Shown here piece by piece: positions 1,857 to 37,955 of a DNA stretch of 64,000 nucleotides. The notes beneath the pieces are model-generated. The model ran no database searches. It saw nothing but the letters and a program-made list of their open reading frames with translations, and was not told the DNA's origin. Made by a program: the position numbers and the translations under genes. This stretch comes from Candidatus Latescibacterota bacterium (GTDB taxonomy: Bacteria; Latescibacterota; UBA2968), in assembly GCA_965204745.1 (NCBI GenBank), contig OZ242010.1:5184001-5248000 (forward strand). Reading direction: 5' to 3'. Position 1 is the first letter of the stretch. Each line of letters begins with the position of its first letter.

Positions 1857-1860
1857 CTCA

Positions 1861-2703: not shown

Positions 2704-2718
2704 GGCCAGGCCCTCTCG

Positions 2719-4095
2719 CTAAAGTTTTGAGACCATGAACGCCAAGGTGCCCAGCGCGACCGTGGCGCCGTAGTCCAACTGCGCGGGGCGAAATGGCGAC
2801 AAGCGGCGAGCGTTCAAAAATGTGCCGTTGCTCGAGTTCAAATCCTCGACGTAAAACCGATCATCCCGAACCGAGATTCGCACATGCCGTCTGGATACAT
2901 TTTCATCTCGAACGACTTCATCCACCAAGTCGGGATGCCGCCCGAGCGAAAGCCCCAGGCGTTGCCCCGCGAATCTCTCGGGCGATAGTGCGATGCGAAC
3001 GCGATTGCCCCGGCTGTCAAAACCGGACAGCACCAGACCGCGGTTTGGCAGGGGGCTAGTGGCTGGTTTTTTTGCGACTGGCTGAGGTTGCCCGGCGGAT
3101 CGTTTTTGCACCATCTCACCGCCGCCTCGTCGGCTGATCCGCCGGCTCATGCCTTCTGCTATGCGGACGATCTGTTGCCTGGGTTTTCTGAGGGCGAGTG
3201 CCAAGGCGACCAATGTCAGGAGGCCCAAGAATATCCCCCATGTCAGAAATTGATCGCGTGCCTCTTCGGCTTGGATCCGCGCTCGTTCCGCTTGTTTCGC
3301 GGCGCGATCCGCCCCTCGCAGTGCCTTTTGCATCTCTTCGGTACTGCCCACGCCAGTTGCCGGCAAGCACGCATGGGTCTCTGATCGAAAGGCGATATTG
3401 TGCGTTTGCAAGAGCCTTGCGAGTTCCTCGATGTGCGAGGACCAGTAAATCCCCATGGCATGGGGCACGCGCTCGGTCCCACCGGAAGGACTACGAATGA
3501 CGATGAGAGACGCTTGTGTGTTCACGCCGATCACCCTGCCGCAATCATCCACCAAGGGGCCGCCGCTGTTGCCCGGATTGGTCGGCGCGTTGTGTTGAAT
3601 AATCCCGAGGTTTTGGCTGTGCCACGCGCCCGTAAAAACGCGCCCAATGACGCCGTCCTGCACGGTTGGATCGTGCGCGGGCCTTTCCCTGTCCGCGCCG
3701 CCGGGATAGCCGATGGCCCAGACTTTCTGCCCTTTTTTGGGTTGTGCGAGCGAAAATGTGATGGGCGGGAGGGTTATCCCCAAAACGCGGACAATAGCCA
3801 AGTCGAGTTGCCGGGAGGTGGCGATCACTTCGGCGTCATACATCCTGCTCGAATTTGTCGGTATGGCTTTGACCTGCCGCCCGCCCGCAATGACGTGGGC
3901 GTTTGTGGCGATATAACCGCGATTGTCGATCACGAATCCCGTGCCCGCCCCAACGCCCCGATGCGTCCGCGTGACGATCCGCACGACACTCTTTTCAAGC
4001 GCGGCAAAATCCGGCTCGGCCATCGCATCGCGCCCGCAACAGAGAACGGATAGGACCAGAACGGCAAAACGCCAATAGTTGAATTGGCACGGCAT
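2719..4095 (-). CDS. Trypsin-like serine protease + TM + C-terminal FHA domain
   Basis: Signal peptide; TNAHV, DLAIV, GNSGGP triad intact; LGRH, SRRH, SSNGT FHA motifs. Confidence 0.9.
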   Translation of the reverse strand: MPCQFNYWRFAVLVLSVLCCGRDAMAEPDFAALEKSVVRIVTRTHRGVGAGTGFVIDNRGYIATNAHVIAGGRQVKAIPTNSSRMYDAEVIATSRQLDLAIVRVLGITLPPITFSLAQPKKGQKVWAIGYPGGADRERPAHDPTVQDGVIGRVFTGAWHSQNLGIIQHNAPTNPGNSGGPLVDDCGRVIGVNTQASLIVIRSPSGGTERVPHAMGIYWSSHIEELARLLQTHNIAFRSETHACLPATGVGSTEEMQKALRGADRAAKQAERARIQAEEARDQFLTWGIFLGLLTLVALALALRKPRQQIVRIAEGMSRRISRRGGGEMVQKRSAGQPQPVAKKPATSPLPNRGLVLSGFDSRGNRVRIALSPERFAGQRLGLSLGRHPDLVDEVVRDENVSRRHVRISVRDDRFYVEDLNSSNGTFLNARRLSPFRPAQLDYGATVALGTLAFMVSKL

Positions 4096-4096
4096 G

Positions 4097-5629
4097 TCAC
4101 GCCTCCACCAAACGCACCTGAAAAACGACCGGTCCCAGTTCGAGTTGATCATTGCTTTGCAACACCATCGGTTCACCCGGATCGAGCGCATGCCCATTGA
4201 TCCGCGTGCCATTTAGGGTATTCAAGTCCTCGGCATAGAGATCGCCGCCGGAAACGGTCAGCCTGACGTGGGCGCGGGAAATGGATTCGTGGTCGATCAC
4301 AAAATCGGCTTTGTCCGGGCTCCGCCCGAGGATCGCGCCGGATTGATCGCCCAATGCAAGCGCCGATAGACGCAACGCGAATGGCCTATCAGCGTGGTCT
4401 CGACCTTCCAACACGCAGCCAAAAGGCGCGGGTTGCGCTGCGGCTCTTCGCGCTGCTACGGCCTCTTGTTCTGCCTCGCTCAAGCGGGACTCGGCGCTTT
4501 GCAACCGCGCTTTCTTGCGGCGGGAAGAAATCAGCCAGCCGAGCAATGCGATCAGCAGCAAGGCCGCGCTGATGGCGATAACCCATTGCGACCGCTGCGC
4601 GGTCCTCTCCTCGACGACTGCGAGGCTATCGGCTTTTGCTTTGGCCTGCTCTCGCGCTGTTTTGACGCTGTTAGCTGCCGCGGCTTTGATGCTGTCCGCC
4701 CGTGCCCGATTGACCGAATCCGCCCGCGCTTGTTCTGCTTTGAGACTGTCTGCCACCGCTCGTTTGACCGAATCCGCCCGCGCCTTGGCGCGTTCTGCTT
4801 TTAGGCGTGCGGCGCGTTCTGCGCGTACTCGCTTCTCTGCGGCTTGGACGCTGTCCGCCATCGCTCGCTTCACGGAATCCGCCTGCGCCTGTGCTGCTTT
4901 GACGCTGTCCGTTGCGGCTTTGCGCGCTTGTTCGGCGCGTTCAATCGCGCTTGAGCACGCTTCTTCAACGACGGTGTAGGCAATGCCCCGGCCCATCAGC
5001 GCGGCGATGATGTCGTTGCTGCGTAGGGCAAAGACCGTCCCGCGCGGCTCTGCGTTTTTGCGAAACGGCCAGCGTCCGCGTTCCAAGTCCGGCGTGTTGA
5101 TGCCGACCACGTCCCCGCATTCATTGAACACGGGCATCCCAAAGGCTTTGGACGTCACGACGGCATTGTGATGGAGCAGGTGGACCACGGGATCGCCCGC
5201 TTTCTCACCCGGCAAAGTGTGGTAAGTGCCGATGGTCCCCTGAGAAATCCGCACGCTGTCGCCCATGCCAAACCCCAAGGTCCTCACGGCGCGGCCCACA
5301 GCGGCCCCTTGTTCGGACAAGTTCAGCGCGGGCAAGCCCAACCCCTGCACGCGCAACAGCGCCAAGTTCATCTCCCGCTTGGCAAACACTTGCCGCGCCA
5401 CGATTTCAGCGCCCGTCTTCAGGGATACGACCGTGAATCGCTCTGCATCAGCCAAGAGATGGGCATTGGTCAGCACATACCCCGCTTCATCGACGACAAA
5501 GCCACTTCCTTCCGCCGCGAGTCGGCTACCATCATGAGCACGCACCCGCACAATGCTTTCTACCTGCGCCCAAGCAGAACTCGCGAACAGGAACACCACA
5601 AGATGCACCATCACAGCAACGACACGCAT
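4097..5629 (-). CDS. Trypsin-like domain with degenerate triad + Ala-rich coiled coil + TM + FHA
   Basis: GSGF and TNAHL present, but NLALL and KAFGMP replace the Asp and Ser motifs; LGRS, SRAH, TLNGT FHA motifs. Confidence 0.85.
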   Translation of the reverse strand: MRVVAVMVHLVVFLFASSAWAQVESIVRVRAHDGSRLAAEGSGFVVDEAGYVLTNAHLLADAERFTVVSLKTGAEIVARQVFAKREMNLALLRVQGLGLPALNLSEQGAAVGRAVRTLGFGMGDSVRISQGTIGTYHTLPGEKAGDPVVHLLHHNAVVTSKAFGMPVFNECGDVVGINTPDLERGRWPFRKNAEPRGTVFALRSNDIIAALMGRGIAYTVVEEACSSAIERAEQARKAATDSVKAAQAQADSVKRAMADSVQAAEKRVRAERAARLKAERAKARADSVKRAVADSLKAEQARADSVNRARADSIKAAAANSVKTAREQAKAKADSLAVVEERTAQRSQWVIAISAALLLIALLGWLISSRRKKARLQSAESRLSEAEQEAVAARRAAAQPAPFGCVLEGRDHADRPFALRLSALALGDQSGAILGRSPDKADFVIDHESISRAHVRLTVSGGDLYAEDLNTLNGTRINGHALDPGEPMVLQSNDQLELGPVVFQVRLVEA

Positions 5630-5707
5630 GGAGACCTCCTCTTGTATCGTAAGCAGTCAGCAAAACAATCGGTCAGCACATCCATTGCCTTGGGGTGGAA
5701 AGGGGGG

Positions 5708-5739
5708 ACTGACAACTGACAACTGACAACTGACCACTG
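5708..5739. repeat. Heptamer tandem repeat ACTGACA/ACTGACC
   Basis: Four or more tandem units; same family at 19440, 31201, 39586, 51233, 55047. Confidence 0.8.
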
Positions 5740-5754
5740 CATCTCCCCTCTTTG

Positions 5755-7293
5755 CTATTGCTCTTTTTTTAGAAGACGCATGCCAGCGTTCTTCATTTGC
5801 CACAGAGTAATCAACCAGACCACAACCATAATAATCGCTGTGATTACCCAAATGCCCGCTATCGTAATTATACGCTCATCATTGCTGTTTATCACCGCTA
5901 GTAGTATTGCCGATAGTAGTATTGCCAACCACGGCAAGCAACAGAATGACAAACTGAAAAATGTACTGATCTTTGGATCTGTGATCTCGGCATTGAGGGC
6001 TTTGGCGAGACCGTGAATTGCAACGAAGTACCAGTAGAAATTGAATAATGGAATAAAGAGAAAGCCAATGGCTTTGCCTGGGGTTGTCCTCGCTTTGTCG
6101 GCGGGGATGAGCGACCACAATTTGTGCAGAACGAGGCAACCGAACACGTCAGCAATGATCACGGCTATGGTGTCCAACGCCAACGACCCTGAGATAAGCG
6201 GCAGGGGTACCGTAGCAACAAGGAAAATCCAGTGGGTACTGAACCACGTTTGCAAACGCTTCGCGTCGTCGACTTTGGGGGCTGAAGGAGGGCGATTGGG
6301 CAATTCGTCAATGGTCCTTTCATTTTTGAAATGCCCTTGCGGCAGTGCCGAATCCACCGCCAACTCGGCGTGCCATTCGGACGCCGCCGAGGAGCCGCTT
6401 GGGGAGGAGATTGAAGCGGTGTCGGTCAACGCATCGCGCCATTCGGACACACTTTGCGGCCGGGCATCCTCATCTACTTGTAGCGCGTGATCGATAGCGG
6501 CGAGAAAATGTTGGCTCGCACGGCCCTTGCACCGATCCGAAACTGGAATCAGCGGATCGCGGCGCACCCTATCCGTTGCATCAGCGGGCACCTCATCCGT
6601 CAACGCGCGATAGCACACCCCGGCCAATGCGTAAATATCCGTCCAAGGCCCTTGATTCCCGCGGGTCGAATACTGCTCTATCGGCGCGTATCCCGGCGTC
6701 ACAATGGAGGTCACAGAACGGCTCTTCGCACCCACCGCTTGACGCGCCGCGCCAAAGTCGATCAACACGGGCGAGCGATCCTCGGCGCGAATGACGATGT
6801 TGCCAGGTTTGATGTCCCGATGCAAAAAATCCGCACGATGCACCGCCGCCAAGCCGTCGAGAATCGGATGCAGAATCGCCTTGAGCTCCGACTCGGTCAA
6901 GATGCCCTTGCGGTTGAGATACGCGGACAGGGTCTCGCCCTCGGCGTATTCCATCACGATATACGCCGTGTTGTGCGCTTGAAAAAAATGATGCACGCGC
7001 ACGATATTTGGATGCTGAAACCGCGCCAAAATTCGGGCTTCATCTACAAATCGATCCAGCCCCCACTGAAAGTCCGCTACAACTTGAGACGACTGCGGCA
7101 CCACGGACAGATCGCTTTCGCGGATCGCGAGATCAGCGGGCAGATACTCCTTGATCGCCACGGGAATATCCAGCGCGTGATTCCAGCCGAGGTAGGTAAT
7201 GCCAAACCCGCCGTGCCCGAGGACGCGGTGAAACTCAAAATCCCCAATGCGCGTGCCCTGCGGCAAGGCCAATCTGTGTTGTGCTTCGTCCAT
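5755..7293 (-). CDS. Hanks-type Ser/Thr protein kinase with C-terminal multi-TM domain
   Basis: LGHGGFG, VAIKE, HRDIKPGN, DFG, APIE motifs; several hydrophobic helices at the C-terminus. Confidence 0.93.
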   Translation of the reverse strand: MDEAQHRLALPQGTRIGDFEFHRVLGHGGFGITYLGWNHALDIPVAIKEYLPADLAIRESDLSVVPQSSQVVADFQWGLDRFVDEARILARFQHPNIVRVHHFFQAHNTAYIVMEYAEGETLSAYLNRKGILTESELKAILHPILDGLAAVHRADFLHRDIKPGNIVIRAEDRSPVLIDFGAARQAVGAKSRSVTSIVTPGYAPIEQYSTRGNQGPWTDIYALAGVCYRALTDEVPADATDRVRRDPLIPVSDRCKGRASQHFLAAIDHALQVDEDARPQSVSEWRDALTDTASISSPSGSSAASEWHAELAVDSALPQGHFKNERTIDELPNRPPSAPKVDDAKRLQTWFSTHWIFLVATVPLPLISGSLALDTIAVIIADVFGCLVLHKLWSLIPADKARTTPGKAIGFLFIPLFNFYWYFVAIHGLAKALNAEITDPKISTFFSLSFCCLPWLAILLSAILLAVINSNDERIITIAGIWVITAIIMVVVWLITLWQMKNAGMRLLKKEQ

Positions 7294-7419
7294 GGCGTCC
7301 CTCCGATATTATGGTACCTATCCCCTTGTTCAGTGATCCGCAACCACCGGCCCACTCGTATCAAAAAAGCGCGTAGCGATATTCCTTGTCCGAGCGCGGA
7401 AAATAAAAGAAAGAGACAA

Positions 7420-7765
7420 GGGGAGCAGGGCTTGCTTGAAGGATGGCCGCAAGGGCTGTTTTAATGGGTTGGGGACCTATCCCCCCGGCCCCCTTTCCTA
7501 CAAGGAAAGGGGGAGCATAGCTTGCTTGAGTGATGGATCAAGGGCTGTTTTAATGGCTTTGAGCGAGGGCGTTATGCGATTAAAACCCGTCACATTCCCT
7601 CTCGCAAAACCCATCTGCGTTCTCCCTTCCTCGCAGGCACAGGCGTAGCCTACAACGAGTGAAACGAGTAACGGGGGTAGGGGGTAGGTCCTGATAATGT
7701 TAAAAAGGAACGGGGAGCAGGGGTTTCTTAAAGGGTGATCGCATTGGCTATTTTGATGGCTTTGG
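7420..7765. repeat. REP/REPIN-like composite: inverted pair of GGACCTAyCCCC...CCCyTTCCT-N-AGGAArGGGG units with repeated spacer
   Basis: Units at 7472-7514 and 7623-7691 in opposite orientation; related copies at 38025, 47761 and 55217-55516. Confidence 0.8.
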
Positions 7766-7795
7766 ATGAGTGCTCGACAGCCGCATGGGTATATA

Positions 7796-9124
7796 TCATT
7801 GGGGGCGACGCGCGGCATCCTCGGCGATGTTGTATCCGCCTTCTCCTGTGCGGCGGTAACGCTCGATCATTCGTTCGCGCTCTTCCGTCGGCTGTGCATC
7901 GTAAACGCGCCAGACGTGATCTATCTCTTCAAAAGGGATTTCAAAATCGAGTTCCGCCGCGTAGCGGTGCATCCGTTCCAAGGTGGTCAGCGCGTATTTC
8001 CAGTTGACAAGAGGCTTTAAGAGAAGCACTGCCCGCCGTTGCAACGATAGCTGGGCAAGGGGATGAATGCGAGCAGTCCACTGTTCGTTGGGGCGATGCT
8101 CAACGCCGATGGCCGAAATCGCGATATCGGATAGCCCAAGTCGAGCGTCGAGGGTCGGCGGTCCAATTTCGTGTGGGACTTCTACAACGCGATCTCGGAT
8201 CTGGAACGCATCGGCGAAGGGAGGTGCCGGAAGATGGCGGGATCCCTTGAGGTCCAGCGTCTCGATTAGGGCTTTGCGGTCTTGGTCTGAGGGCGCCCAG
8301 AGATCTAGATCCTTCGGAGGCTGTCCCGTTAGCAAAGTCTTGAATGCACCGCCGGCGAGAAAAAACCTGGCACCAGTGTCAAAACCGATAGTCGCGGCAA
8401 CTTCACGGCGTGCGAACTCAATCACGTCGGACTCTTCAAGTGGGCAAAGAGGATCCAAATCATGGCGAACCGCCTCAAAGTCACGGTAGGCTGTATTCAA
8501 TCCGTCTTCTTCGCGCCAGAAAAACGCGCCCTCAAGGTACCAGGGCCAGTCATTCTTCCCAAGAGGTTGCTTCAACAGCCGCGCTGCCGTTACAGTCACC
8601 AACGAGTCGTGCGTGACAAACACATGAATCCCGGGAATATCGTTCGCTACGGCGAACATGTGTTGTACGAGAAACCGCGCCGCTTCGTCGGGCCGCGACA
8701 ACCCTGGCAACGGGTCAGCCCCCGACACCAGACGCGCCATGACATCTTCATGGTCGCGTTCGGTCCAGATGCATTCGGCACGCTTACTATCGAGGACATA
8801 AATGCCCGGATCGCCGAGTAATTGGTCGGGCACTATGCGGCAGTTGCCCCCAGAACCATCCCGCAGAACTTCGGCGGTCTGAACACACCTAATGAGGGGA
8901 CTCGCGTGAAGCGTACGCAATCTGTCGCCGATCAGGGTGCCGAACTTGCGTCCAAGCCTTCGTCCAATATTGTTAATCGGAAGAGTATAACCCACCATAT
9001 CCCCGGGCGGAAGAGGGTCGCGGACCGAGTGGCGGAGCAAAAAGACCACCGGGCGATTGCGAGGCACCCGTTTGAGAATCGGAGGTATCCAAGACGGGAT
9101 TTGATAACAGATGGTATCGTTCAT
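7796..9124 (-). CDS. Histidine phosphatase domain fused to a polyA-pol/CCA-type nucleotidyltransferase-like domain
   Basis: LLRHS, SPLIRCVQTA, VTHD; C-terminal FLAGGAFK...PKDLDLW. Confidence 0.75.
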   Translation of the reverse strand: MNDTICYQIPSWIPPILKRVPRNRPVVFLLRHSVRDPLPPGDMVGYTLPINNIGRRLGRKFGTLIGDRLRTLHASPLIRCVQTAEVLRDGSGGNCRIVPDQLLGDPGIYVLDSKRAECIWTERDHEDVMARLVSGADPLPGLSRPDEAARFLVQHMFAVANDIPGIHVFVTHDSLVTVTAARLLKQPLGKNDWPWYLEGAFFWREEDGLNTAYRDFEAVRHDLDPLCPLEESDVIEFARREVAATIGFDTGARFFLAGGAFKTLLTGQPPKDLDLWAPSDQDRKALIETLDLKGSRHLPAPPFADAFQIRDRVVEVPHEIGPPTLDARLGLSDIAISAIGVEHRPNEQWTARIHPLAQLSLQRRAVLLLKPLVNWKYALTTLERMHRYAAELDFEIPFEEIDHVWRVYDAQPTEERERMIERYRRTGEGGYNIAEDAARRPQ

Positions 9125-10785
9125 TGCGCCACCCCCACCAACACCGAGACGAGCGATTCCAGAGTTTGAACCTCTTTTATTTTGAAATCCGCGTTATTGA
9201 GCAAGTGCCCGTATTCTGCGGTCGTGCGTTCCTTCCCCCCGCTTGTCATGAGCAGATGCAGGCTACACAACGCGCCCGCGATGCCAGTCTTGGGAATCAA
9301 CATCTCGACGATGTAGATGTGCCCCCCGCGGGGCAGGGCTGCCCGGGCGTTTTGCAGTATCCGGATCGCCTTTGCATCTGCCCAATCGTGAAGGACGCGG
9401 GCGAGTACAACCGCATCGGCCTCAATGCCCCACGGCTCAAATAGATCGCCCGCATACCATGCGAGCCGTTCGCGTTTTCCTTGCTCCTGAATTGCCCGAG
9501 CGATCACCTCGGGGCGGTCGAGGACGGTCACCTGGAGATGGGGATGTGCGTCGAGCATGAGATTTGCCAACACACCCAACCCACCGCCGGCATCAATAAC
9601 GCGCTCGCGCCCCTGAAGACCCAATGCGCTCGTCACACTTGAATAGTCGTGCCGAGCGTAACTTTGCAACATTCGATGATGCCCTTCGCAACGCTGTTCA
9701 TCGCGGGCGACTTCGGCGAAAACATCGGGTGCGTTCTCGTTGCCGTGCAGGGCTTGCGGAAGCGAAGCCCACATTTCCGAAAACGGCCCTGCGTATTCAA
9801 GGGCTGCATCTGCCAATGTGAGCGGATGCTCCATACAGAGAAATTCTCCGCGGGCGGTCAGGTGCCAAATGCCTTCCCGCATCGAGACGAGGGATAACTC
9901 TCCCAGTGCCCGCAGAAGTCGTTGGACAGCACCGATCCGCAATTTGCACTTGTGCGCGACCTCGACAGTGCTCGCGGGGAGTAACTCAATGACGCCGAGT
10001 TTGACTGCGGCGGCGATGGTTTGCGTTCGCCAAAAGCCGACCATGTCCCCAGAGAGTACTGCGAACTCGGAGCGACGGGGTGAACGGAGCGCGACCATGG
10101 ACTCGCCCATCTCGTCGATGACCTCGAATGCCCCGTCGAATCGCTCCACGCGGGCTTGACCGTTGTAGAAGGGTTCCACCGTTGCGAAACGGCGCGAATA
10201 GATGGGGGTGCCGGTGCGATTGACATGTGCCCAACCTGCTTCATCCCGGGCGCGTGCAAAACCTTTGTGGAATACATCGAGATCTGAGAACCATTGACCG
10301 TGTATTTGTCGACCATCCGCGTCGATATGCGTAGATCGGCCATCTTTGGCCTGAATAACGGCGATGCCGTCGCGGTAATCGCCAGCATAACGCCACCGCG
10401 CCTGATAAACCGGAATGCCGTCGTATGCGATGTGAAAGTACGAATTGTCGTTATCGCGTACCGCACATCGTCCTTCTTGAAAGTTGCCGCACCAAGCGTA
10501 TCGCTGTGGGTACGCATCTTTGCCGGATGGCTGAATATGGTGCCAGCCATCTTTGCCAATAACAGCAGCACGGTTTTCGTAGAAGCCAAACGTTCGCCGA
10601 AAATGCCGTTTATAGGCCGGTCTGCCATCCGGCCCGATGTGCCATGCCTTTGATCCTCGGAGGACTGGTGCCAACCCCGGTGCGCGAAACTTCAGGACTT
10701 CGTCAAATCGTTCTTCATAAGCGGGAATGCCGTTAATGACGTGATGGGAGCCTTCCGGTGCGATGTCCAAAAATTCAGGATTCAT
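9121..10785 (-). CDS. WG-type beta-repeat domain fused to a SAM-dependent methyltransferase (Methyltransf_2-like)
   Basis: Repeated F.EG.A.V...W.HI...G units; dimerisation HTH, IDAGGGLG, GDLF, RVLHDW, GGKERT. Confidence 0.85.
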   Translation of the reverse strand: MNPEFLDIAPEGSHHVINGIPAYEERFDEVLKFRAPGLAPVLRGSKAWHIGPDGRPAYKRHFRRTFGFYENRAAVIGKDGWHHIQPSGKDAYPQRYAWCGNFQEGRCAVRDNDNSYFHIAYDGIPVYQARWRYAGDYRDGIAVIQAKDGRSTHIDADGRQIHGQWFSDLDVFHKGFARARDEAGWAHVNRTGTPIYSRRFATVEPFYNGQARVERFDGAFEVIDEMGESMVALRSPRRSEFAVLSGDMVGFWRTQTIAAAVKLGVIELLPASTVEVAHKCKLRIGAVQRLLRALGELSLVSMREGIWHLTARGEFLCMEHPLTLADAALEYAGPFSEMWASLPQALHGNENAPDVFAEVARDEQRCEGHHRMLQSYARHDYSSVTSALGLQGRERVIDAGGGLGVLANLMLDAHPHLQVTVLDRPEVIARAIQEQGKRERLAWYAGDLFEPWGIEADAVVLARVLHDWADAKAIRILQNARAALPRGGHIYIVEMLIPKTGIAGALCSLHLLMTSGGKERTTAEYGHLLNNADFKIKEVQTLESLVSVLVGVAQ

Positions 10786-13133
10786 GAGGTTCCTCCCACG
10801 GGTTTACGCATGTTGCAACCCAGGCAAAGGGAGCGGTTGCGGTATGTTGCCATGAGTTCTCGGTACGCGTCGCCGTTCCATATTTCCATCAATCCTCGCT
10901 CGTGCAGATTGCCAAATTCGCCCAGGGTGCGGCGTTGGGCATCCGGCGCGCAACACGGGTCAAAGCGGCCCATCGCACTCACCCATACCTCTTGACCCAA
11001 AAATGGACACTGCCCGCCGGGGGCGAGATCGTCAACCGCATCTTCATCGAGTGGGAAAATGTTCTCGAGCAAAATGTACTGTCCATTCGGAAGCGTCCGT
11101 TCCACGGCCGCCTCGCGCGCTTTGAAAACCGCCTCATTCCATCGGCGAATGGCTGAGGGGTCGCGGCGCATGGATTGCTTTTTGATTTCGTCGAAGTGGA
11201 CCCACAGGTGGTGCCCTTTCACGCGGTCCACGCCAAGGTCAATGGCGAGTCTCACCGTGTCGGCGAGTTCCCCTACATTGGCTTCGAGAAAAGTTAGTTG
11301 AAAGGTGACGCGACAGCGATTGCCACCGTGGGCCGCGTGTGCGTCTCTCACTGCGATGAATGTCCGTGCGTTTTCCAGCACCTTTTCCCAGTTGGCACCG
11401 ATCATGATGGTCTCCTGCGTCTCTTTCGTCGATCCATTCCAAGAGATTTTGACATCTGACGTCACGGGTACAATTTGCTCTGCCCATTTGCGTGCGCCAA
11501 GGCGCGGGAAGGTGCCGTTGGTCGTGAGGTTGAGCCTAACACCGTAGCGTTTACAAAGATCGAGAATGTCCTCGAATTGATCGTAGAGCAACGGTTCGCC
11601 CATCGTTGACGGAATGATCTCCTCAAGCCCGTGCGGTGCCGCATCTGCGACAACCCGCTCGATCATCTCGAAGGACATCAGCCGCCTAGGCCGGCCTTCG
11701 GTTCTTCTCAAGTCTTGAAGTGGGCTGTGCGGCGAGTGCTCCTCGCACATGATACAGCGCAGATTGCAAGTGTCCGGGTTTGTGTCGAAAGTGATCCGCC
11801 ACGGCCCTTTTCGTCGCTGAAGGCGTGCGGTATCTCGCCGTTTCATCACTTGGTCGTAAAGTGCCTCAATCCGACGAACGTGTGTCTCTATCGCCGGTAC
11901 ATCTCCGGTTGCGCTGGACAGATAGCCCCTCGCGCCGAGTTTGGCGGCGAGTTCGGGCGCATCGACGAATCGTTGCATTTGTTCGGCGAGTGAAGCGGAT
12001 GAGCGATGTTCAAACAGGAGGCCGTTGATCTCGTGATGGACATACTCGCCCATGCCGCCTGCATTGGCGGTGATAACCGGCACGCGGGCCTGTTGCGCCT
12101 CGTGGATGACCAGCGGTGAATTTTCCACCCAAACCGAAGGCACGACGATGGCGTCGCAACGATCAAAAACATCGCGCACAATATTCCAATTTTTGTACTC
12201 GGGCATCCATTCAATGCGCCTGGTCGCGTGTTCTGGCAACGAATTTGCCATCTCTTTTAGCGCGACGGTGTCCTGCCCGCTCGGCCGTCCCCAAATACGC
12301 AAACGCGCATCTCCGCCAATGGTGCTGAACGCCCGAATGAGATCGTGAATACCTTTGGCCGGAATGTGCGTCCCAATGTAGCCAAAGGTAAACGGTTCGC
12401 ACGGAGCTCGGTTGCGGCCCATCATTCGTTTTTGATCGAAACCGTAGTCGAGATAAACGAGTTTGCGTTCGGGCAAACCGAAAGCGTCTCGGTAACGGTC
12501 GTGGAGATAGCGGGCCGGCGCGATAAAAAGATCGATCAACTCGGCCATTTCACGCACATGTTGCATGCGCCGCCCGACCCAGTCGGTCCAGTAGGTGACA
12601 TCGGCCTCGTATTCGTCGGGGGCACCGCTGAAGTAACGGGCATAGCAACGCTCGGCGCACTTGCGATCATCTTGTCCGTCGCAAGCGGCCCAGAGATTGT
12701 TTGGATCTTCGGGAAACATCTGCATAAACTGACCGCGGGGGCACATCAGCCAGTAGTCGTGCAGGGTATAGATGATCGGCACTTCCCGGCGTGCCACTTC
12801 TCGCACCAGCGAGGTCGAGAGGTGGTTGAGATGACCGATATGCACCAGATGCGGTTGCAACCGATCCAGCACTTCGGCAAAGCATTGGTCAACCCCAACG
12901 GCTCGATATCGATCCTTGAAACGGGGATTGTTGACAACATGGAGCGCGACCCGCGGATCTTCGGTATCTCGTTCCACGCGCAAGCGAAAATCCGGCGCAA
13001 AGGGATCTTCTTCACGGGTGAAGACATGCACCTCGTGGCGATTGGCGAGCCCTTGGCACAACATCTGGCTGTACACCTCTGACCCGGCGTTGTAGCGCAT
13101 GGGGTAACCATGAATGACTTTCAGAATTTTCAC
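10782..13133 (-). CDS. GT4-type glycosyltransferase fused to a radical SAM/SPASM domain
   Basis: TLHDYW, KGI, ENSPLVIHEA (GT-B); CNLRCIMC, MGEPL, TTNGT and C-terminal Cys cluster; GTG start with AGGAGG. Confidence 0.9.
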   Translation of the reverse strand: MKILKVIHGYPMRYNAGSEVYSQMLCQGLANRHEVHVFTREEDPFAPDFRLRVERDTEDPRVALHVVNNPRFKDRYRAVGVDQCFAEVLDRLQPHLVHIGHLNHLSTSLVREVARREVPIIYTLHDYWLMCPRGQFMQMFPEDPNNLWAACDGQDDRKCAERCYARYFSGAPDEYEADVTYWTDWVGRRMQHVREMAELIDLFIAPARYLHDRYRDAFGLPERKLVYLDYGFDQKRMMGRNRAPCEPFTFGYIGTHIPAKGIHDLIRAFSTIGGDARLRIWGRPSGQDTVALKEMANSLPEHATRRIEWMPEYKNWNIVRDVFDRCDAIVVPSVWVENSPLVIHEAQQARVPVITANAGGMGEYVHHEINGLLFEHRSSASLAEQMQRFVDAPELAAKLGARGYLSSATGDVPAIETHVRRIEALYDQVMKRRDTARLQRRKGPWRITFDTNPDTCNLRCIMCEEHSPHSPLQDLRRTEGRPRRLMSFEMIERVVADAAPHGLEEIIPSTMGEPLLYDQFEDILDLCKRYGVRLNLTTNGTFPRLGARKWAEQIVPVTSDVKISWNGSTKETQETIMIGANWEKVLENARTFIAVRDAHAAHGGNRCRVTFQLTFLEANVGELADTVRLAIDLGVDRVKGHHLWVHFDEIKKQSMRRDPSAIRRWNEAVFKAREAAVERTLPNGQYILLENIFPLDEDAVDDLAPGGQCPFLGQEVWVSAMGRFDPCCAPDAQRRTLGEFGNLHERGLMEIWNGDAYRELMATYRNRSLCLGCNMRKPVGGTS

Positions 13134-13161
13134 AGCGATCTCCTCCTTTGTATTTCGCGCA

Positions 13162-14154
13162 TCATATCGCCACATCCACGCTTTTGCCGGACGCGCCTGA
13201 GATGCGGGCCGCGTGCAAGACCTGCATCACGCGCAAGCCGTGTTCCGCGGTGATGATCAAGTCTTCGCCCTCGCGCAGGTGCCGGGCGATGTTCACGTGC
13301 AGATTTTCCCGCGGCACGGCCTCCGTGCGAACATCCCGTCCGTTTTCACTGTAGATGGTGACTTCGCCCGCGCCGCCACGTCCGCACACGAGCGTGGCTT
13401 CTGTGCCGAGAACGATCCACTTGTACGGCAGTGCGTAATGGGAAATATCGGCCTTGGCCGCGCGGGCGCGCACCCCATTGTCAAAGACCATGACGATATC
13501 GAACAAATCGTCGGCATCCCCCCATTTGGTATGCCGCACATCGGCAAAGACCGAGACGATGCGATGCCCCGCCATCAAGTCGATCACCTGCTCGACCCAG
13601 TGCGGCCCAAAATCCAGCAAAGTGCCTCCGCCCGCGGCCGCGGTCACGCGCCATTGTCGGTCGTAGTCCGCGATGCCGAACCCCACGGCCGGGCGCGCGC
13701 CCAGCGTGCGATTTTCAATGGCGACGACCTCGCCAACGGCCCCGTCCAAAACCGCGCGCTTCACCAGACAATAATCCCGGTCAAAGTGCCGGTTGTGGTG
13801 CAGCGTCAGCATCACGCCATTGTCCTTTGCCGCCTGCACCATCTCCTCGGCCTGGGGCCCGGTCAGTGCCATGGGCTTTTCGATCAGCATGTGCTTTTTC
13901 GCCGCGGCCACCTTGAGCGCGTCTGCATAGTGCGCTGCCGAATGCGTGGCGATCAACACCAATTCGATGTCCCAAGTCAAAAACGCGTCGAGGTCATCGG
14001 TCGCGCGCAGGCCCTCGCCCATCGCCGCGTCTCGTCTGGACGCCGTAATATCGCACACCCCCACCACCTCGTACACCCCGGTCTCGCGCATGATTCGCAG
14101 ATGGTTGCCGGCCACGCGCCCAAATCCAATTATGCCCGCTTTGATTTTTTTCAT
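13162..14154 (-). CDS. Gfo/Idh/MocA family oxidoreductase
   Basis: GIIGFGRVA, IEKPMA, GGGTLLDFGPH. Confidence 0.9.
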   Translation of the reverse strand: MKKIKAGIIGFGRVAGNHLRIMRETGVYEVVGVCDITASRRDAAMGEGLRATDDLDAFLTWDIELVLIATHSAAHYADALKVAAAKKHMLIEKPMALTGPQAEEMVQAAKDNGVMLTLHHNRHFDRDYCLVKRAVLDGAVGEVVAIENRTLGARPAVGFGIADYDRQWRVTAAAGGGTLLDFGPHWVEQVIDLMAGHRIVSVFADVRHTKWGDADDLFDIVMVFDNGVRARAAKADISHYALPYKWIVLGTEATLVCGRGGAGEVTIYSENGRDVRTEAVPRENLHVNIARHLREGEDLIITAEHGLRVMQVLHAARISGASGKSVDVAI

Positions 14155-14880
14155 TTATTTTTCCTCGTCGTCTCCGTATTCCTCGCCGCGATAGGCCGCC
14201 CGCACTTGGGCTATCGTGGTCGCCTTTTTCACCCGCGCTTGCAGGGCCTCTTCCGTTGCGATCAACAGGTTGACATTCGCCAGCACCTCGGCCATTCGAT
14301 TCGCCGGAAACTTGACCGCGCCATTTTCATCCATGTGGATGATCTCCCCGGGCGCGACATCCATGCCGCAAATCGACACCGGCACGTTCACCGCTTGCAC
14401 GGCCTGATCCCCGTGCCCGGGGGAGATGCCGGTCAACAAATACTGAAATCCCATCGGCCGGATTTCGTCAATGTCCCGCGATGGCCCGTTCGACACGCAA
14501 CCTATGCAGCCCAACGCCTGCATCGTGGTCGTCATATTGCCGCCCGCAAGCCCGACCTTGCCCGCAATCTCGGCCGGGAACTTCTGCTCCAGCGCGAGGA
14601 TAGTAGGCTTTGGCGACGCGTCCAATGCCTCGGCCACGTCCATGAACGACAACCGCTTAAACCCCGCGTCTGGCAAGCCAAACGCACACGTCACCGCGTA
14701 CCCGCACCGCGCGCCGAGTTCCGGATACATGCACTTGATCGTCTGATCCGTGTACCAATTCTCGGTCCAGGGATTGTAAAGCCCCAAACACAGCGGATTA
14801 TTCGGATACGTCGCCACCACATTGGTGATGGATGGCGTATCGAATTTCTCCAACGCCTTCAAAATTTCCCGATCCGTCAT
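14155..14880 (-). CDS. RraA/HMG aldolase family protein
   Basis: DTPSITN, NGPSRDIDE, VAPGEIIHMDENG. Confidence 0.85.
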   Translation of the reverse strand: MTDREILKALEKFDTPSITNVVATYPNNPLCLGLYNPWTENWYTDQTIKCMYPELGARCGYAVTCAFGLPDAGFKRLSFMDVAEALDASPKPTILALEQKFPAEIAGKVGLAGGNMTTTMQALGCIGCVSNGPSRDIDEIRPMGFQYLLTGISPGHGDQAVQAVNVPVSICGMDVAPGEIIHMDENGAVKFPANRMAEVLANVNLLIATEEALQARVKKATTIAQVRAAYRGEEYGDDEEK

Positions 14881-14947
14881 GACTTCCTCCTTTGAAAATC
14901 AGTGGTGCTCTGCCCGGCCCAAAGGCAAGAGGCAAGAGGTAAGAGGC

Positions 14948-16245
14948 AAGATACTCTCTTAAAAGGTCAAGGGGTTTTCGGGGTGATTCGATAGAATTTT
15001 TCGCCCTCAAAATCTTGGTCATGGCGCAACATGCCCCAGATCGAATGGAGCAACTTTCGCATCACCGCAACGATAGCCTGCAAAGGTTTCTTGCCGCGGG
15101 CGATGAGTTGGTCATAGAAGGCTTTGACATGGCCTTCGTGTCTGATGGCCACCCAGGCAGGCATATAGAGGGCATGGCGGAGGTACTTATTCCCGGTTTT
15201 CGAGATGCGTCTTTGTGGATTGGCGGTTCCGGATTGTTTGGGTTTGGGATCCAGGCCTGCATGTGCGACCCACTGGGGCGGTTGCATCTCCTCTGGCAAA
15301 AGGGTCAACTCGGCCAAGAGCCGCAAGGCACTCGTTTGCGCGATGCCAGGCGTCGAGCAGAGGCGTTGGTAGGCACGCTTGAGGGGCTCATCGTGCAAAA
15401 CGAGATCGAGGGCTTGGCTTTCCAAGTATGCAATCCGGCGTTTGAAGTGTCGAATATTCACCTGAATATCGCGTGCGATGAGACGTGTGCTGCGGATGTG
15501 GTAGCTCTGCGCGTGGTTGCGGCTCTGTTCGCGGATGATCTCCTGCTTGAGTTGGTCAATGCGTCTGGTGAGGGCTTGCAGTTGAAGCCGTTGCTCGCTC
15601 GGCGCTTGCCAAGGCACAAAAGGCATGCGCTCGGCATAGTCGAGGATCAACAACGCATCCTTCGCATCCGTCTTCGCCCGTTGCATGCAGGCTTGGGCGT
15701 ACTTGCTCATCGCTTTGGGATTGACGACCATGACCTTTGTGTGGCGATGCCGATGCAAGGCCAAGGCCACCCCCAAACTGTAAAGCCCGGTCGCTTCGAG
15801 GCACACAGAGACCATGTGCCCGCCCTTCGTGAGCCACTTCAGCAACCGCTTATGCGCTTGGGGATCATTGGCAAAGGTCGCTTGCATGACAGCTTGTCCG
15901 GGTCTGGACAGGGCAACGGACAACGTGCGGGCACTGACATCAATGCCGGCAAAAGCGGGGTGAGATTTCGACATGGGGGCCTCCTGTGATGAGGGGGTTG
16001 TAAGGGATCTGGTGCGCGCTCGGGGTCGCGTCCCGACCATTGACGCCAAGTCTACCGGTCTTGTATATGCAGCCTCAAGGGGCTTAGATACTCTTCGGCA
16101 TAGACCCGGCGGTCGGGGGGCCTATCTTACCTACAAGGTCATCGCCTTCAAGAGGGGCCGGCCTTCCCCGAGCCGGGCATCAAGATGGCTTATCTCGATA
16201 CGAGGGCGCAACTCCTAATTAACCCTTACTTCCAAGATAGCAAGA
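14948..16245 (-). mobile_element. IS110-family insertion sequence, copy 1 (1298 bp including both TCTT cores)
   Basis: Matches the other two copies apart from one extra base at the left junction; no terminal IRs; ~270 bp non-coding leader. Confidence 0.95.
14967..15974 (-). CDS. IS110 DEDD recombinase/transposase
   Basis: GIDVS, LEATG, KTDAKDA, AGLDP..QSG, GNKYLRHALY; AGGAGG RBS. Confidence 0.95.
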   Translation of the reverse strand: MSKSHPAFAGIDVSARTLSVALSRPGQAVMQATFANDPQAHKRLLKWLTKGGHMVSVCLEATGLYSLGVALALHRHRHTKVMVVNPKAMSKYAQACMQRAKTDAKDALLILDYAERMPFVPWQAPSEQRLQLQALTRRIDQLKQEIIREQSRNHAQSYHIRSTRLIARDIQVNIRHFKRRIAYLESQALDLVLHDEPLKRAYQRLCSTPGIAQTSALRLLAELTLLPEEMQPPQWVAHAGLDPKPKQSGTANPQRRISKTGNKYLRHALYMPAWVAIRHEGHVKAFYDQLIARGKKPLQAIVAVMRKLLHSIWGMLRHDQDFEGEKFYRITPKTP

Positions 16246-16318
16246 GGGGAGAGGGCCACCCACAGCACGCTCCCCTAGCTCTTAGGGGTCAGTAGAGCGA
16301 AGGACGCAGTAGGTGTGG

Positions 16319-16900
16319 TCATGGCATCCTCGCCATCTGGGTTTCGAGTCGCTGGGCAAGGGCGTCGAAATCCTCGGGGCACTTCTGTCGGATCGCGCTT
16401 ATTCGGCGTGCGGCTTCGCGTCCGAAGGTATCGCGGCCGCCGCCAAGGCGATTGGCGATGCCGCGTTGTTGTGCCAGAACCTCAAAGTAATTTTCCTTGA
16501 CATGAATCTCTGCGCGAACGTCCGCCCAACGCCAATTATGAGACAAGTTCAAGCCCGCGAGAACCCAAGTCTCGATCTCTTCCCAAGCGTTCTCAGCCAA
16601 GAAAACCCGTTGACCTCCGAACCGCGCCTCGAGCTGGTTGAGCCTTTGTCGTCTCTGTGTGTTGCCATCGCGGTCGACGCATAAGATGAAAATGTCTATC
16701 ATGCCTCGATATTGTTCTACGATTTCTGCCATGCGTCTCGATTTTAGGGCTTCCCCAATGCCGCCGAGCAATGGGTCCTGACAAATTCGAATATGTGCGG
16801 AAGGTCTCGGTCTCTTGAAGGTTCTCATAAGCCGAGAGAAAAGCGGCTTGAGAATGTACTGGTCTTTGCGAAAGTCTTCCGGGATGATGAGGATGTTCAT
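16319..16900 (-). CDS. Hypothetical partner of AAA_21 ATPase (TOPRIM/DUF4276-like)
   Basis: N-terminal IIPED, CVDRDG, EEIETWVLA; coupled to the ATPase by an ATGA overlap. Confidence 0.65.
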   Translation of the reverse strand: MNILIIPEDFRKDQYILKPLFSRLMRTFKRPRPSAHIRICQDPLLGGIGEALKSRRMAEIVEQYRGMIDIFILCVDRDGNTQRRQRLNQLEARFGGQRVFLAENAWEEIETWVLAGLNLSHNWRWADVRAEIHVKENYFEVLAQQRGIANRLGGGRDTFGREAARRISAIRQKCPEDFDALAQRLETQMARMP

Positions 16901-18129
16901 TCTCTGATCCTCTCATCTTGAGCACGCGCCAAGTTGAGCATATCTTCCAGCCACCCACTCGTGTGGAGTCGTCCCAAGCCTTGAGATCGCCGCAACTTCT
17001 GTGCGTTGGGCAGACTAGCTACAGATCGGATGACAGCGTCGTCAGTGTCCTCAAGTCGGCAGATGACGGAGGTGTTTTCGAATGTCCTATCATCGATAAG
17101 GGCCAGCATGTCGGGCGAGTGGGTGGTGGTAATCACTTGGATGCCGTTCTGCGCGGTCTGTTTTTCGATCAGTTCGAGGAGTAGCCACAGGCGGTTGGGA
17201 TGAATGCCATTGTCGAGTTCCTCAAAAAAATAAATGCCCGATGGGTTCGTGCCGAGCAACGCGGTCAGCATAGCCAGAAAGCGCAGCGTGCCATCCGACG
17301 CGCTGTAAGCCGATACTTTTCTGCCATTCGCTTCGCAAATCATGAGATGGACCCGTCCACTGGGATCGCGCAAAAACTCAAAACCCGCCACATCCATCTG
17401 CGTGAGTTCCGCCAGCCACTCAGCGAGAATCTCCTGCTGCCGCGGATCAATACAGATTTCCGCCAGTACTGTAGGCAAGTTCTCGCCGCCGTCGCCCAAG
17501 ACAGTCGCATCGGGGAAAGCAGGCACCCGCATCTGTTCCGGCGACAATTCCAGAAAGCGGATGTTGGCGAGAACGCCAATTACTTGCGCGGCGAGATTCC
17601 CATAGTCTTGGTCGTGCCAAACCCCGAGGGGGTAACTTTGAATCTGTGTCAGTGCCGGTTGGTCTGGGCGCACCGCGATTATCTGATTAGTCTCTCCGAG
17701 GCGAAGGCATATAGCTTTTCTATGAGCAAGGCTATCTGGCTGGGTCGTGTAGATCGGCCTCCCATCGGCGTTTAGTTCTTCTCGCGCAACCCTGAATGTA
17801 CCCAGCCTGGTTTTATCGCGTCTGACTTTGATGGCGTAATTAAAGCGGTGATTCTCGACCCGAAATTTGACGCAAAGGGAGAGTGACGGTTGCCCAAAGC
17901 GGATGACTTCATCGGTAGCACCGCGGATCGGTTTCCAACCAGCCTCGTGCTTCCCGCCAAAAATCTCGGCTAAAGTGTAGCCACGACCAATGCCCTGTAA
18001 GAAGCGGAACGCGTCGCGGATGTTGCTCTTGCCGCTGGCGTTCTCTCCCACGAGTACGGTGAACGGACCTACGCGAAGCGTTTCGTCTGCGAAGTTCTTG
18101 AAATTGACGAGTCGGAGCGAAGTGATCAT
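16897..18129 (-). CDS. AAA_21/ABC-type ATPase
   Basis: GENASGKS Walker A, SDGTLR signature, FFEELDNG Walker B, TTHS. Confidence 0.9.
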   Translation of the reverse strand: MITSLRLVNFKNFADETLRVGPFTVLVGENASGKSNIRDAFRFLQGIGRGYTLAEIFGGKHEAGWKPIRGATDEVIRFGQPSLSLCVKFRVENHRFNYAIKVRRDKTRLGTFRVAREELNADGRPIYTTQPDSLAHRKAICLRLGETNQIIAVRPDQPALTQIQSYPLGVWHDQDYGNLAAQVIGVLANIRFLELSPEQMRVPAFPDATVLGDGGENLPTVLAEICIDPRQQEILAEWLAELTQMDVAGFEFLRDPSGRVHLMICEANGRKVSAYSASDGTLRFLAMLTALLGTNPSGIYFFEELDNGIHPNRLWLLLELIEKQTAQNGIQVITTTHSPDMLALIDDRTFENTSVICRLEDTDDAVIRSVASLPNAQKLRRSQGLGRLHTSGWLEDMLNLARAQDERIRE

Positions 18130-18205
18130 GGTGCTTCTCCAAGTGGACTGTTTCCGCGCTTCGGGCAGGCACGGGGCGCCGCCACTACCTGCTTTTCATC
18201 CGCGG

Positions 18206-19183: not shown

Positions 19184-19272
19184 TGCAACGCTCCTGTGCC
19201 GAACAGAAATGGGGGAATCATTCGTCTTAAAACCGTCTCTCAAAAACAAAAAACCCACGCATAATAGACGAC

Positions 19273-19328
19273 CGAACACCATGAGTCAACGCAAAAAATC
19301 CCCTGCTCCGCATTGGAGAACAGGGGAG
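19273..19328 (-). terminator. Intrinsic terminator-like hairpin
   Basis: CCCCTG(C/T)TCC stem followed by a T-run on the minus strand. Confidence 0.5.
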
Positions 19329-23161: not shown

Positions 23162-23170
23162 TTTTGCCTC

Positions 23171-24055: not shown

Positions 24056-24161
24056 AGCACACCTCACATTGAGCAACCCAAGGATCACAAACGCACATCG
24101 TGCAATTTACTACACGAATGTTCAGTTGTCAAGTTTGTTTTTTTCCACGCAAAGGAAGGAT

Positions 24162-37950: not shown

Positions 37951-37955
37951 TTACC

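Follow-up and report, generated by a model that had tools for sequence, protein, structure and literature searches.

We analyzed a stretch of 64,000 nucleotides of the genome of a Candidatus Latescibacterota bacterium (contig OZ242010.1; hereafter the window, meaning the whole stretch) and found that three coupled minus-strand genes at 7796-13133 form one horizontally mobile unit, the first two genes of which are homologues of UC3 and UC4 (WD0613 and WD0614) of the Undecim Cluster of Wolbachia phage WO. Gene 1 encodes a glycosyltransferase of family GT4 fused to a radical S-adenosylmethionine (radical SAM)/SPASM domain, gene 2 a WG-repeat domain fused to an O-methyltransferase, and gene 3 a predicted histidine phosphatase fused to a nucleotidyltransferase (NTase)-like domain. 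Judged from sequence, this three-gene set is the commonest free-living form of a cassette that has a UC2-UC4 core. We propose that the cassette serves to make, in the cytoplasm, a modified small molecule derived from a sugar, namely a glycoside that would be phosphorylated and then dephosphorylated, with optional methylation and nucleotidylation, and that would serve an accessory and possibly conflict-related purpose; we regard this proposal as evenly balanced between right and wrong.

The relation to the Undecim Cluster is seen at the level of both sequence and gene order. The gene 1 product aligned by tblastn to phage WO (MN180251) with 51.7% identity over residues 15-793 (98%), the phage gene being annotated as glycosyl transferase/moaA-nifB-pqqE family, and with genes on Rickettsia plasmids (two) and Arsenophonus plasmids (three) it shares 51% and 55% identity, respectively. 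Gene 2 aligned over its full length to UC4 of phage WO, which occupies the same position (tblastn, 30% over 553 columns, E 3e-84), and the UC4 counterpart on pREIP is annotated as a "WG repeat-containing protein". In both WO and pREIP the genes run in the order short-chain dehydrogenase/reductase (SDR), GT4-radical SAM fusion, WG-repeat protein, PhyH, ABC transporter and two threonine-aldolase-type genes; the SDR found in the cassettes aligns to UC2 (38%) and their PhyH to UC5 (24-29%). Directly upstream of the three genes, the window has no UC2-type SDR and carries GFO/IDH/MocA and RraA genes instead, and none of UC5-UC11 (PhyH, ABC transporter, two aldolases, GlpT, UDP-glucose dehydrogenase and methylase) was found in window positions 1-24000; the insertion site is chromosomal and not in the eukaryotic association module of a prophage. 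Gene 3 has no counterpart in the WO and Rickettsia clusters.

An earlier sequence-only reading of this DNA could not assign the operon to a known pathway; it is true that no characterised pathway matched, but genes 1 and 2 do have homologues in a published cluster (PMC9203015). According to section 16 of that report, the Undecim Cluster is found in most arthropod Wolbachia and is highly expressed, and its functions are annotation-based predictions only (PMC9203015). The "AGAB" aminoglycoside cluster of Rickettsia buchneri, which was considered as a relative, is a different locus, composed of PIG-L, KanB, HemL, BtrB and other genes (PMC9111745, PMC8770908). The analogy with aminoglycoside biosynthesis drawn in the sequence-only reading found no support, with neither a 2-deoxy-scyllo-inosose synthase nor an aminotransferase linked to the cassette.

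Mobility of the unit is evident from comparison with relatives. Within the genus of the window, 2 of 20 other species carry the cassette, and none of 40 genomes of neighbouring genera and families does, and DNA of the RraA-GFO pair is present in all 12 same-genus genomes searched. The cassette-less relatives have the order aldo-keto reductase-RraA-GFO-sulfatase-ThuA. The co-oriented, adjacent GFO/IDH/MocA oxidoreductase and RraA-like genes of the window (13162..14880, minus strand) were considered as pathway members and rejected, being backbone genes of the chromosome that are kept in relatives without the cassette. The insertion is best defined in a second cassette-bearing locus (L002), whose flanks are 92-95% identical to those of a cassette-less one (L101): a 6,078-bp insert, consisting of a small open reading frame (ORF), a PemK-like toxin gene and the three cassette genes, replaces 6 bp between the GFO and sulfatase genes. 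In the window, homology to the relatives likewise stops at the stop codon of the GFO gene, and the upstream edge of the inserted unit is a 28-nt spacer with a Shine-Dalgarno sequence (13134..13161, minus strand). The neighbouring region has received other DNA as well; an IS110-family transposase gene, a 193-aa ORF and an AAA_21 ATPase gene (PADLOC PDC-M07A, 1.5e-64) at 14967-18129 are inserted between the aldo-keto reductase and RraA genes, which are adjacent in four same-genus relatives.

Beyond the genus, the cassette is widespread. A protein search with gene 1 gave 2,698 homologues among 8,000 scored candidates, and the best 120 of the 2,698 are 76-98% identical and nearly all 783 aa long. 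When one genome per species was taken, 130 of 135 candidate stretches encoded a relative, and 79 loci were kept, in which the GT4-radical SAM fusion is 63-93% identical across more than ten phyla. By record name the carriers include Latescibacterota (87-93%), Myxococcota (Sorangium, Nannocystis, Myxococcus), Gamma-, Beta- and Alphaproteobacteria, Opitutales/Verrucomicrobia, Planctomycetota, Nitrospinae, Longimicrobium, Desulfovibrionales and others, with halophiles and marine taxa among them. Records of culturable carriers are those of Halomonas sp. 25-S5, Ramlibacter alkalitolerans, Ectothiorhodospira shaposhnikovii, Myxococcus vastator, Sorangium and Nannocystis. Viral contigs gave five full-length loci (46-59% identity) and one partial locus with an alignment query, and none with a single-protein query. 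A literature search found no paper on the combination of radical SAM, glycosyltransferase and WG repeat, nor one on a neighbourhood of viperin and glycosyltransferase genes.

The composition of the cassette was counted in the 62 loci whose downstream sequence spans 4 kb or more. A WG domain was present in all 62, making it the sole universal partner of gene 1, a methyltransferase in 46, a phosphatase in 44 and an NTase in 28, and all four occurred together in 23; the linkage of these parts is far above chance. The genes of the window operon, whose co-occurrence elsewhere the sequence-only reading had named as a check, are therefore found together in other genomes, above all the pair of gene 1 and the WG domain. 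In 43 of 72 loci the upstream region encodes, on the same strand, an SDR epimerase/dehydratase. The arrangement of domains is variable: GT4 and radical SAM are two separate genes in L074 and L076, the phosphatase and NTase are found singly or split into separate genes in other loci, and the WG domain stands alone in some loci and is fused to a NUDIX domain in L054. Other tailoring genes are PhyH (L003, L049, L052, L055) and carbamoyltransferase (L050, L079, L014, L018). We also noted a conserved protein of about 230 aa with a DWD motif and no Pfam or PADLOC match, encoded just downstream of gene 3 in L004, L010, L037, L049, L053 and L077 (e.g. L037:15338-16027) and detected by tblastn in 9 of the 62 loci.

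In the window, the three minus-strand ORFs lie at 10782..13175 (797 aa), 9121..10785 (554 aa) and 7796..9124 (442 aa). The start of gene 1 is a GTG at 13133, giving a 783-aa protein (10782..13133); a GGAGGA sequence lies 7 nt upstream, and the homologues are likewise 783 aa long and begin with MKILKVIHGYP. At both the gene 1/2 and the gene 2/3 junctions the sequence ATGA provides a 4-bp stop/start overlap. Inspection of the three proteins showed no signal or membrane segments, and the operon contains neither a transporter gene nor a conserved small ORF. The ORFs, the junctions, the Pfam matches and the model of gene 3 thus agree with the sequence-only reading, which had described three overlapping genes, each a fusion, with six domains in all, had placed the gene 1 start at 13133 and had remarked on the absence of a transporter or precursor peptide.

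Gene 1 is highly conserved. Among 52 full-length sequences, 270 of 783 positions are invariant (residue numbers here and below follow the 783-aa protein), and the median identity to the window protein is 73% in the GT4 half and 74% in the radical SAM half. Pfam detected Glycos_transf_1 (3.7e-24), Glyco_transf_4 (8e-17), Radical_SAM (8.5e-15) and SPASM (5.4e-10). The GT4 domain occupies residues 1-437 (11823..13133, minus strand), and its best Foldseek matches are sucrose-phosphate synthase (6kih, 1e-17), MshA (3c4q, 2.5e-17), GlgM (6tvp, 2.7e-17) and BshA (6n1x, 1.3e-16), with TM-scores on the target of up to 0.79. E337 and E345 are invariant and lie in the segment ENSPLVIHE, which we take to be the E-x7-E motif of GT4 retaining glycosyltransferases. 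From the Pfam and fold matches and the invariant glutamates, the N-terminal half is a GT4 retaining domain of the GT-B type. Its N-terminal lobe carries an insert with four cysteines (C131, C151, C159 and C163; 12645..12743, minus strand), each kept in 52/52 sequences, so that the Cys-rich insert pointed out in the sequence-only reading proves to be strictly conserved. The insert is probably a metal site, and the low confidence of this region in the model (pLDDT < 50) is what would be expected of such a site, which AlphaFold does not model.

The C-terminal 346 aa (10785..11822, minus strand) are predicted to be a radical SAM domain followed by SPASM, since they carry the corresponding signature, a CX3CX2C motif and a C-terminal Cys-rich auxiliary-cluster domain. 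The motif cysteines (C456, C460 and C463) and seven more (C527, C607, C709, C727, C728, C770 and C773) are each present in all 52 sequences. The CX3CX2C motif is located only 16-23 residues into the radical SAM domain, straight after GT4, and therefore there is no N-terminal peptide-recognition domain. Features of a maturase of ribosomally synthesized and post-translationally modified peptides (RiPPs), i.e. an N-terminal RiPP recognition element domain and a linked precursor peptide gene, were both looked for and not found; no conserved small ORF is linked, and orf106 (7498-7818) has no homologue in the 79 loci. The radical SAM domain has no close solved relative by search, and its family is discrete, with 131 clusters at E <= 1e-30 in a full scan of 1.84 billion representatives. 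A search for shorter homologues gave, among the matches listed, only stand-alone or truncated forms that are 64-87% identical, few of them named and all of those generically.

Gene 2 (9121..10785, minus strand) consists of a WG-repeat domain (residues ~1-235; 10081..10785) and a class I O-methyltransferase with a dimerisation domain (residues ~245-554). Pfam gave Methyltransf_2 (5.1e-35), Dimerisation (2.4e-7) and WG_beta_rep (3.8e-7), and the closest solved relatives of the methyltransferase are the natural-product O-methyltransferases CalO6 (6e-32), AlpH and MmcR. In the alignment each of the six WG repeats has an invariant histidine (H15, H49, H83, H118, H153 and H187), which replaces the glycine of the canonical repeat (W-H-x-I). 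These six residues could form a ring, and their invariance suggests a ligand or metal site in the WG domain; a profile search found no solved relative of this domain.

Gene 3 (7796..9124, minus strand) was recognized mainly from its predicted structure. Pfam detected only His_Phos_1 at a sub-threshold level (4.8e-4, 20.3 bits against a cut-off of 21.7), and an AlphaFold model built from 29 sequences had a pLDDT of 92.5 and a pTM of 0.91. In this model residues 1-225 match histidine phosphatases (RosC 8s6q, 1.6e-7; TIGAR; PhoE; Rv3214) and residues 226-442 match class II tRNA nucleotidyltransferases (4wc2, 6.3e-9; 1vfg; 5hc9). The alignment shows conserved RHS (LLLRHSVR) and THD (VTHDS) catalytic motifs, GGAFKTLLTGQPPKDLDLW and GG...DLD. 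From the motifs and the predicted fold, the N-terminal half is assigned to branch 1 of the histidine phosphatase superfamily. The C-terminal half aligns over about 215 aa to targets of 340-440 aa, corresponding to the head and neck only, with the tRNA-binding body and tail absent; it is predicted to be a pol-beta-type NTase that falls short of a full CCA enzyme.

Giant fusion proteins of 1,318-2,458 aa, found in the scan with the radical SAM domain, contain the same parts in single polypeptides. P0282 and P0284 consist of a GHMP kinase, GT4 and radical SAM, and P0286 and P0292 have, in addition, the WG-O-methyltransferase, with gene 2 being 30% identical to P0286 (E 2e-58). P0308 is composed of a phosphatase-like head, a carbamoyltransferase, GT4, radical SAM and a WG tail; its head is 28% identical to gene 3 (E 1.9e-6) and its tail matches the WG domain at E 9e-34. 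The N-terminus of P0308 is a hydrophobic segment. Because they are fused in these mega-proteins, the WG domain, methyl- or carbamoyltransferase, phosphatase, GT4 and radical SAM act together, and the mega-fusions probably place the cassette parts in one pathway of sugar chemistry. The fused kinase is galactokinase-like (9ulx "AbGHMP", 1.9e-44; galactokinase 1s4e, 2.3e-8), and the Protein Atlas clusters are named putative galactokinase; a literature search found no paper on "AbGHMP". A sugar anomeric kinase fused to the other parts suggests a sugar-1-phosphate intermediate.

The surroundings of the cassette in several genomes are suggestive of phage defence. The strongest single argument is its embedding in BREX operons of two unrelated lineages, an Opitutales record (L009) and Pseudodesulfovibrio (L051), both with the order BrxHI-[cassette]-PglZ-BrxA; in L051, genes for PglXI, an AriA-like ATPase and ZacABC are close by. 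In L003, a 479-aa radical SAM protein and a 210-aa thymidylate-kinase-like protein are encoded between the SDR and GT4-radical SAM genes (L003:3955-6020), and this pair matches PADLOC PDC-M51A (5e-143) and PDC-M51B (3.5e-58), as well as VakA (1.5e-17). Zorya II follows the cassette in L010, and other flanking genes are pVip (L049, 2.2e-90), GajB (L074), SspBC (L021), DruE (L025) and AbiEii (L024), while BrxL, BrxE or PglW flank four Sorangium loci. Gene 1 itself passes the cut-off of the Pfam GT4-conflict family (35.4 against 26 bits). Elsewhere in the window are a gene pair matching PDC-M19B (3.9e-112) and PDC-M19A (1.4e-105; DUF488) at 22325-24088, a WYL regulator with an IetA-like AAA ATPase at 36910-39352, and a PDC-S11-like gene at 46127-47203; a WYL and IetA-like pair also directly follows the cassette in L021. 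For a systematic estimate, PADLOC hits at E <= 1e-15 were sought in the nearest ORFs to either side, two per side and each 150 aa or longer. Among 44 loci with full flanks (173 ORFs), 15 had any hit and 10 a specific system, and at 24 control sites located 100-200 kb away on the same contigs (95 ORFs) the corresponding numbers were 5 and 2.

From these data we infer the chemical steps, the small-molecule substrate and the biological role as follows. The GT4 domain would transfer a sugar from a nucleotide sugar to a small and probably phosphorylated acceptor, either a sugar-1-phosphate or a nucleotide, and the fused radical SAM/SPASM domain of the same polypeptide would carry out a radical transformation of the glycoside. 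The WG domain may hold the intermediate for the tailoring enzyme fused to it, here the O-methyltransferase, elsewhere a NUDIX hydrolase or nothing, and a carbamoyltransferase would be the alternative tailoring enzyme in other cassettes. The histidine phosphatase would then remove the phosphate, and the CCA-type NTase head could nucleotidylate the product at a hydroxyl of ribose or sugar type, which may activate it or serve self-protection. We favour a small molecule because of the relatives of the methyltransferase, the small-acceptor fold matches of GT4, the match of the gene 3 phosphatase to phosphatases of small molecules, the alternative tailoring enzymes (methyl- and carbamoyltransferases, PhyH and NUDIX) and the lack of both a peptide-recognition domain and a linked conserved peptide gene. 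The idea of a compact intracellular small-molecule pathway, already put forward in the sequence-only reading, is in line with this evidence and with a real cytoplasmic multi-enzyme operon. Between a conflict function, whether anti-phage or antagonistic, and others, we lean towards the former.

Several points weigh against this proposal. The fold ranking of GT4 is shallow, with lipid-linked GT4 enzymes scoring merely 100- to 1000-fold worse. The family of the gene 2 methyltransferase is typical of phenolic acceptors, not sugar hydroxyls, and is a poor fit to a plain glycoside; SPASM enzymes mostly act on peptides, and a protein substrate is possible. The window cassette is without the SDR, and its sugar donor must come from elsewhere. 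As for a role in conflict, the PADLOC-DB 2.0 models recognized generic domains only, with gene 1 matching pVip (1.5e-8, radical SAM core only), gene 2 matching mad2 (1.8e-7) and gene 3 matching none. Across the 24 matched genomes the enrichment over the control sites was not significant (any hit, 8 against 5, p 0.26; specific system, 6 against 2, p 0.12; one-sided Fisher test), and four of the six cassette sites with a specific system are in related Sorangium genomes. The defence role that the sequence-only reading had raised as a possibility therefore draws on striking single loci (BREX, Zorya II, pVip) and not on the matched control.

Other explanations have to be weighed. The cassette might be a nucleoside-antibiotic-type pathway resembling those of tunicamycin, liposidomycin or blasticidin, which we consider rather unlikely, though the foremost of the alternatives. 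In such a pathway a high-carbon or modified sugar nucleoside would be produced or reshaped by the radical SAM domain, with GT4 attaching a sugar and the phosphatase, NUDIX and NTase taking care of nucleotide ends, to yield an antimetabolite directed at phage polymerases, competitors or a host. Two reports list in the tun cluster TunA (SDR), TunB (radical SAM, 337-340 aa, the most conserved Tun protein at 67-86%), TunD (glycosyltransferase), TunG (histidine phosphatase, 192-223 aa), TunM (a methyltransferase implicated in immunity), TunN and TunH (pyrophosphatases) and TunIJ (ABC exporter) (PMC6105854, PMC6965331). The cassette has parallel enzyme classes, with a radical SAM domain of 338-346 aa, unusually conserved like TunB, and a phosphatase of about 220 aa. 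Nucleotide-type accessories (NUDIX in L054, the thymidylate-kinase-like PDC-M51B in L003, viperin in L049 and the CCA-type NTase) fit a nucleoside product, as do the PhyH dioxygenase, two threonine-aldolase-type enzymes and ABC transporter that the Wolbachia and Rickettsia versions add; PhyH and aldolase classes make 5'-C-glycyluridine in the liposidomycin/caprazamycin pathways, which employ a uridine monophosphate dioxygenase and a transaldolase. However, TunA (3vps, 3.6e-21) is no better a match for the SDR of the cassettes than are GalE or UDP-xylose synthase (~9e-23), none of the 20 stand-alone radical SAM relatives looked up among the best 150 has an actinobacterial or Tun name, the clusters of 30 proteins looked up bear no Tun name, and the 18 plasmid records matched by the radical SAM domain include no actinomycete. 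Moreover, no gene of the TunC, TunE or TunH class is linked, most loci are without an exporter, and the kinase of the mega-fusions is a galactokinase-like sugar kinase, not a nucleoside kinase.

Less probable still, in our estimate, is a system that modifies a macromolecule by glycosylating, methylating or repairing an RNA 3' end (tRNA), DNA or protein, for example a self-marking or repair module attached to a BREX-like defence. The NTase does fold like A-adding and CCA-adding enzymes, and the pairing of a phosphatase with a CCA-type NTase has a parallel in the CCA enzyme of E. coli, which carries an HD phosphatase domain, but the NTase here, at about 215 aa, is without the tRNA-binding body and tail, and neither it (28/62) nor the phosphatase (44/62) belongs to the core. 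SPASM enzymes commonly act on polypeptides, and the WG domain, non-catalytic by annotation, could bind a polymer; on the other hand, the methyltransferase is of a small-molecule (COMT-like) class, and the galactokinase-like kinase and carbamoyltransferase found in fusions point to sugar chemistry. The cassette lies inside BREX operons in L009 and L051, yet L051 keeps the BREX methylase PglXI, and the cassette is thus no replacement for it. A similarly slim chance is given to a physiological metabolite, such as a compatible solute, low-molecular-weight thiol or antioxidant, made by an MshA/BshA- or sucrose-phosphate-synthase-like route in which GT4 acts on a phosphorylated acceptor and a phosphatase follows. 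In sucrose and mycothiol synthesis the GT4 step is followed by a dedicated phosphatase, sucrose-phosphate synthase, MshA, GlgM and BshA are precisely the best matches of the GT4 domain, and carriers include halophiles and marine taxa. Against such a metabolite are the patchy, strain-level spread (2/20 species in the genus), the copies on plasmids and in a prophage, and the location in insertion hotspots beside insertion sequences and toxin-antitoxin genes; no deacetylase or ligase is linked, and extreme conservation together with variable tailoring is unusual for an osmolyte route. We regard as highly improbable a precursor pathway for a surface glycan (exopolysaccharide, lipopolysaccharide or capsule), which is how UC1-UC3 and UC10 are annotated. 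Loci of that kind typically contain GT4 enzymes and SDR epimerases/dehydratases, a GT2 glycosyltransferase gene and a sulfatase-like gene lie near the L058 cassette, and WD0611-WD0613 and WD0620 are assigned to exopolysaccharide/lipopolysaccharide synthesis by annotation (PMC9203015). Nevertheless, 118 same-strand neighbours in 63 loci included neither a flippase, polymerase or polyprenyl-phosphate transferase nor any other membrane protein, the three proteins are devoid of signal and membrane segments, and the cassette moves as 3-5 genes alone. Nor does it map to any characterised surface-glycan pathway; the sequence-only reading had named such a mapping as one that would count against its own proposal.

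In a more far-reaching and, we think, improbable reading, the cassette would be a chemical immune module. It would make an intracellular antimetabolite of sugar-nucleotide type, comparable to the 3'-deoxy-3',4'-didehydro-nucleoside triphosphates (ddhNTPs) of viperin, that blocks phage or virus replication; the phosphatase-NTase would toggle the compound between inert and active forms, and the His-ringed WG domain would be a carrier or sensor. Undecim chemistry might then contribute to the effects of Wolbachia on insect hosts and their viruses, and the eukaryote-like mega-fusions might be a protist counterpart.

Some further features near the operon were recorded. Just downstream of it, in the non-coding region 7410-7765, a 64-nt element is directly repeated in three copies (63-75% identical to the reference one), and an 18-nt core occurs in the whole window at only two of them. 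These copies overlap orf106 (7498-7818), a probably spurious ORF that was considered as a fourth gene or precursor and rejected, since it overlies the repeats and has no homologue in the 79 loci. Further downstream, window positions 716-7293 hold a signalling cluster that encodes a Ser/Thr kinase, two paralogous trypsin-like protease-FHA proteins, a small FHA protein, a coiled-coil protein and a MotA/ExbB-like protein. A search of positions 6500-19500 against Rfam at E <= 0.1 gave zero matches, and a promoter and terminator scan of the operon gave nothing convincing.

The Undecim core now appears as one branch of a much wider cassette, and culturable carriers make the question of the Undecim product testable outside an obligate endosymbiont. 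The mega-fusions provide an independent map of which enzymes belong together, and their sugar kinase is a clue to the substrate. If the product is indeed an antiviral or antibacterial antimetabolite, it would represent a new class of effector made by radical SAM enzymes.

Compared with known enzymes, the GT4 domain is closest in sequence and fold to the small-acceptor enzymes sucrose-phosphate synthase, MshA, BshA and GlgM, with which it has E-x7-E in common, but the identity is only 16-18%, and none of these enzymes has the Cys4 insert or a fused radical SAM domain. The NTase domain of gene 3 shares the head/neck fold and the GG...D.D motif with class II tRNA nucleotidyltransferases (A-adding and CCA-adding enzymes and poly(A) polymerase I), whereas it has no body and tail, is joined to a histidine phosphatase and occurs in only 28 of 62 cassettes. 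Prokaryotic viperins also make an intracellular small-molecule effector by a radical SAM enzyme, one of them (pVip) adjoins the cassette in L049, and kinase-associated viperins can be likened to the pair of radical SAM and nucleotide-kinase genes inside the L003 operon. However, the radical SAM domain of the cassette matches only the generic core of viperins (NCBIfam viperin, 27.5 bits against a cut-off of 180) and carries SPASM, which viperins lack. The tunicamycin cluster (tunA-N) of Streptomyces chartreusis and the tunicaminyluracil clusters of Rathayibacter have the same enzyme classes and translational coupling (PMC6105854, PMC6965331). The likeness is in enzyme classes only; the cassette is without a linked acyltransferase, deacetylase or NPP pyrophosphatase, its glycosyltransferase and radical SAM domains are fused, and WG is present.

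The closest known system is the Undecim core itself (UC2-UC5 = WD0612-WD0615, with copies on pREIP, an R. asiatica plasmid and Arsenophonus plasmids), which is mobile and has a fusion protein of the same length and architecture followed by a WG/methyltransferase gene. The window cassette differs from it in lacking the SDR, PhyH, ABC transporter and aldolases and in adding the phosphatase-NTase gene, and, whereas the Undecim core resides in prophages and plasmids, the cassette described here is chromosomal, carried by a free-living Latescibacterota genome at a defined insertion site.

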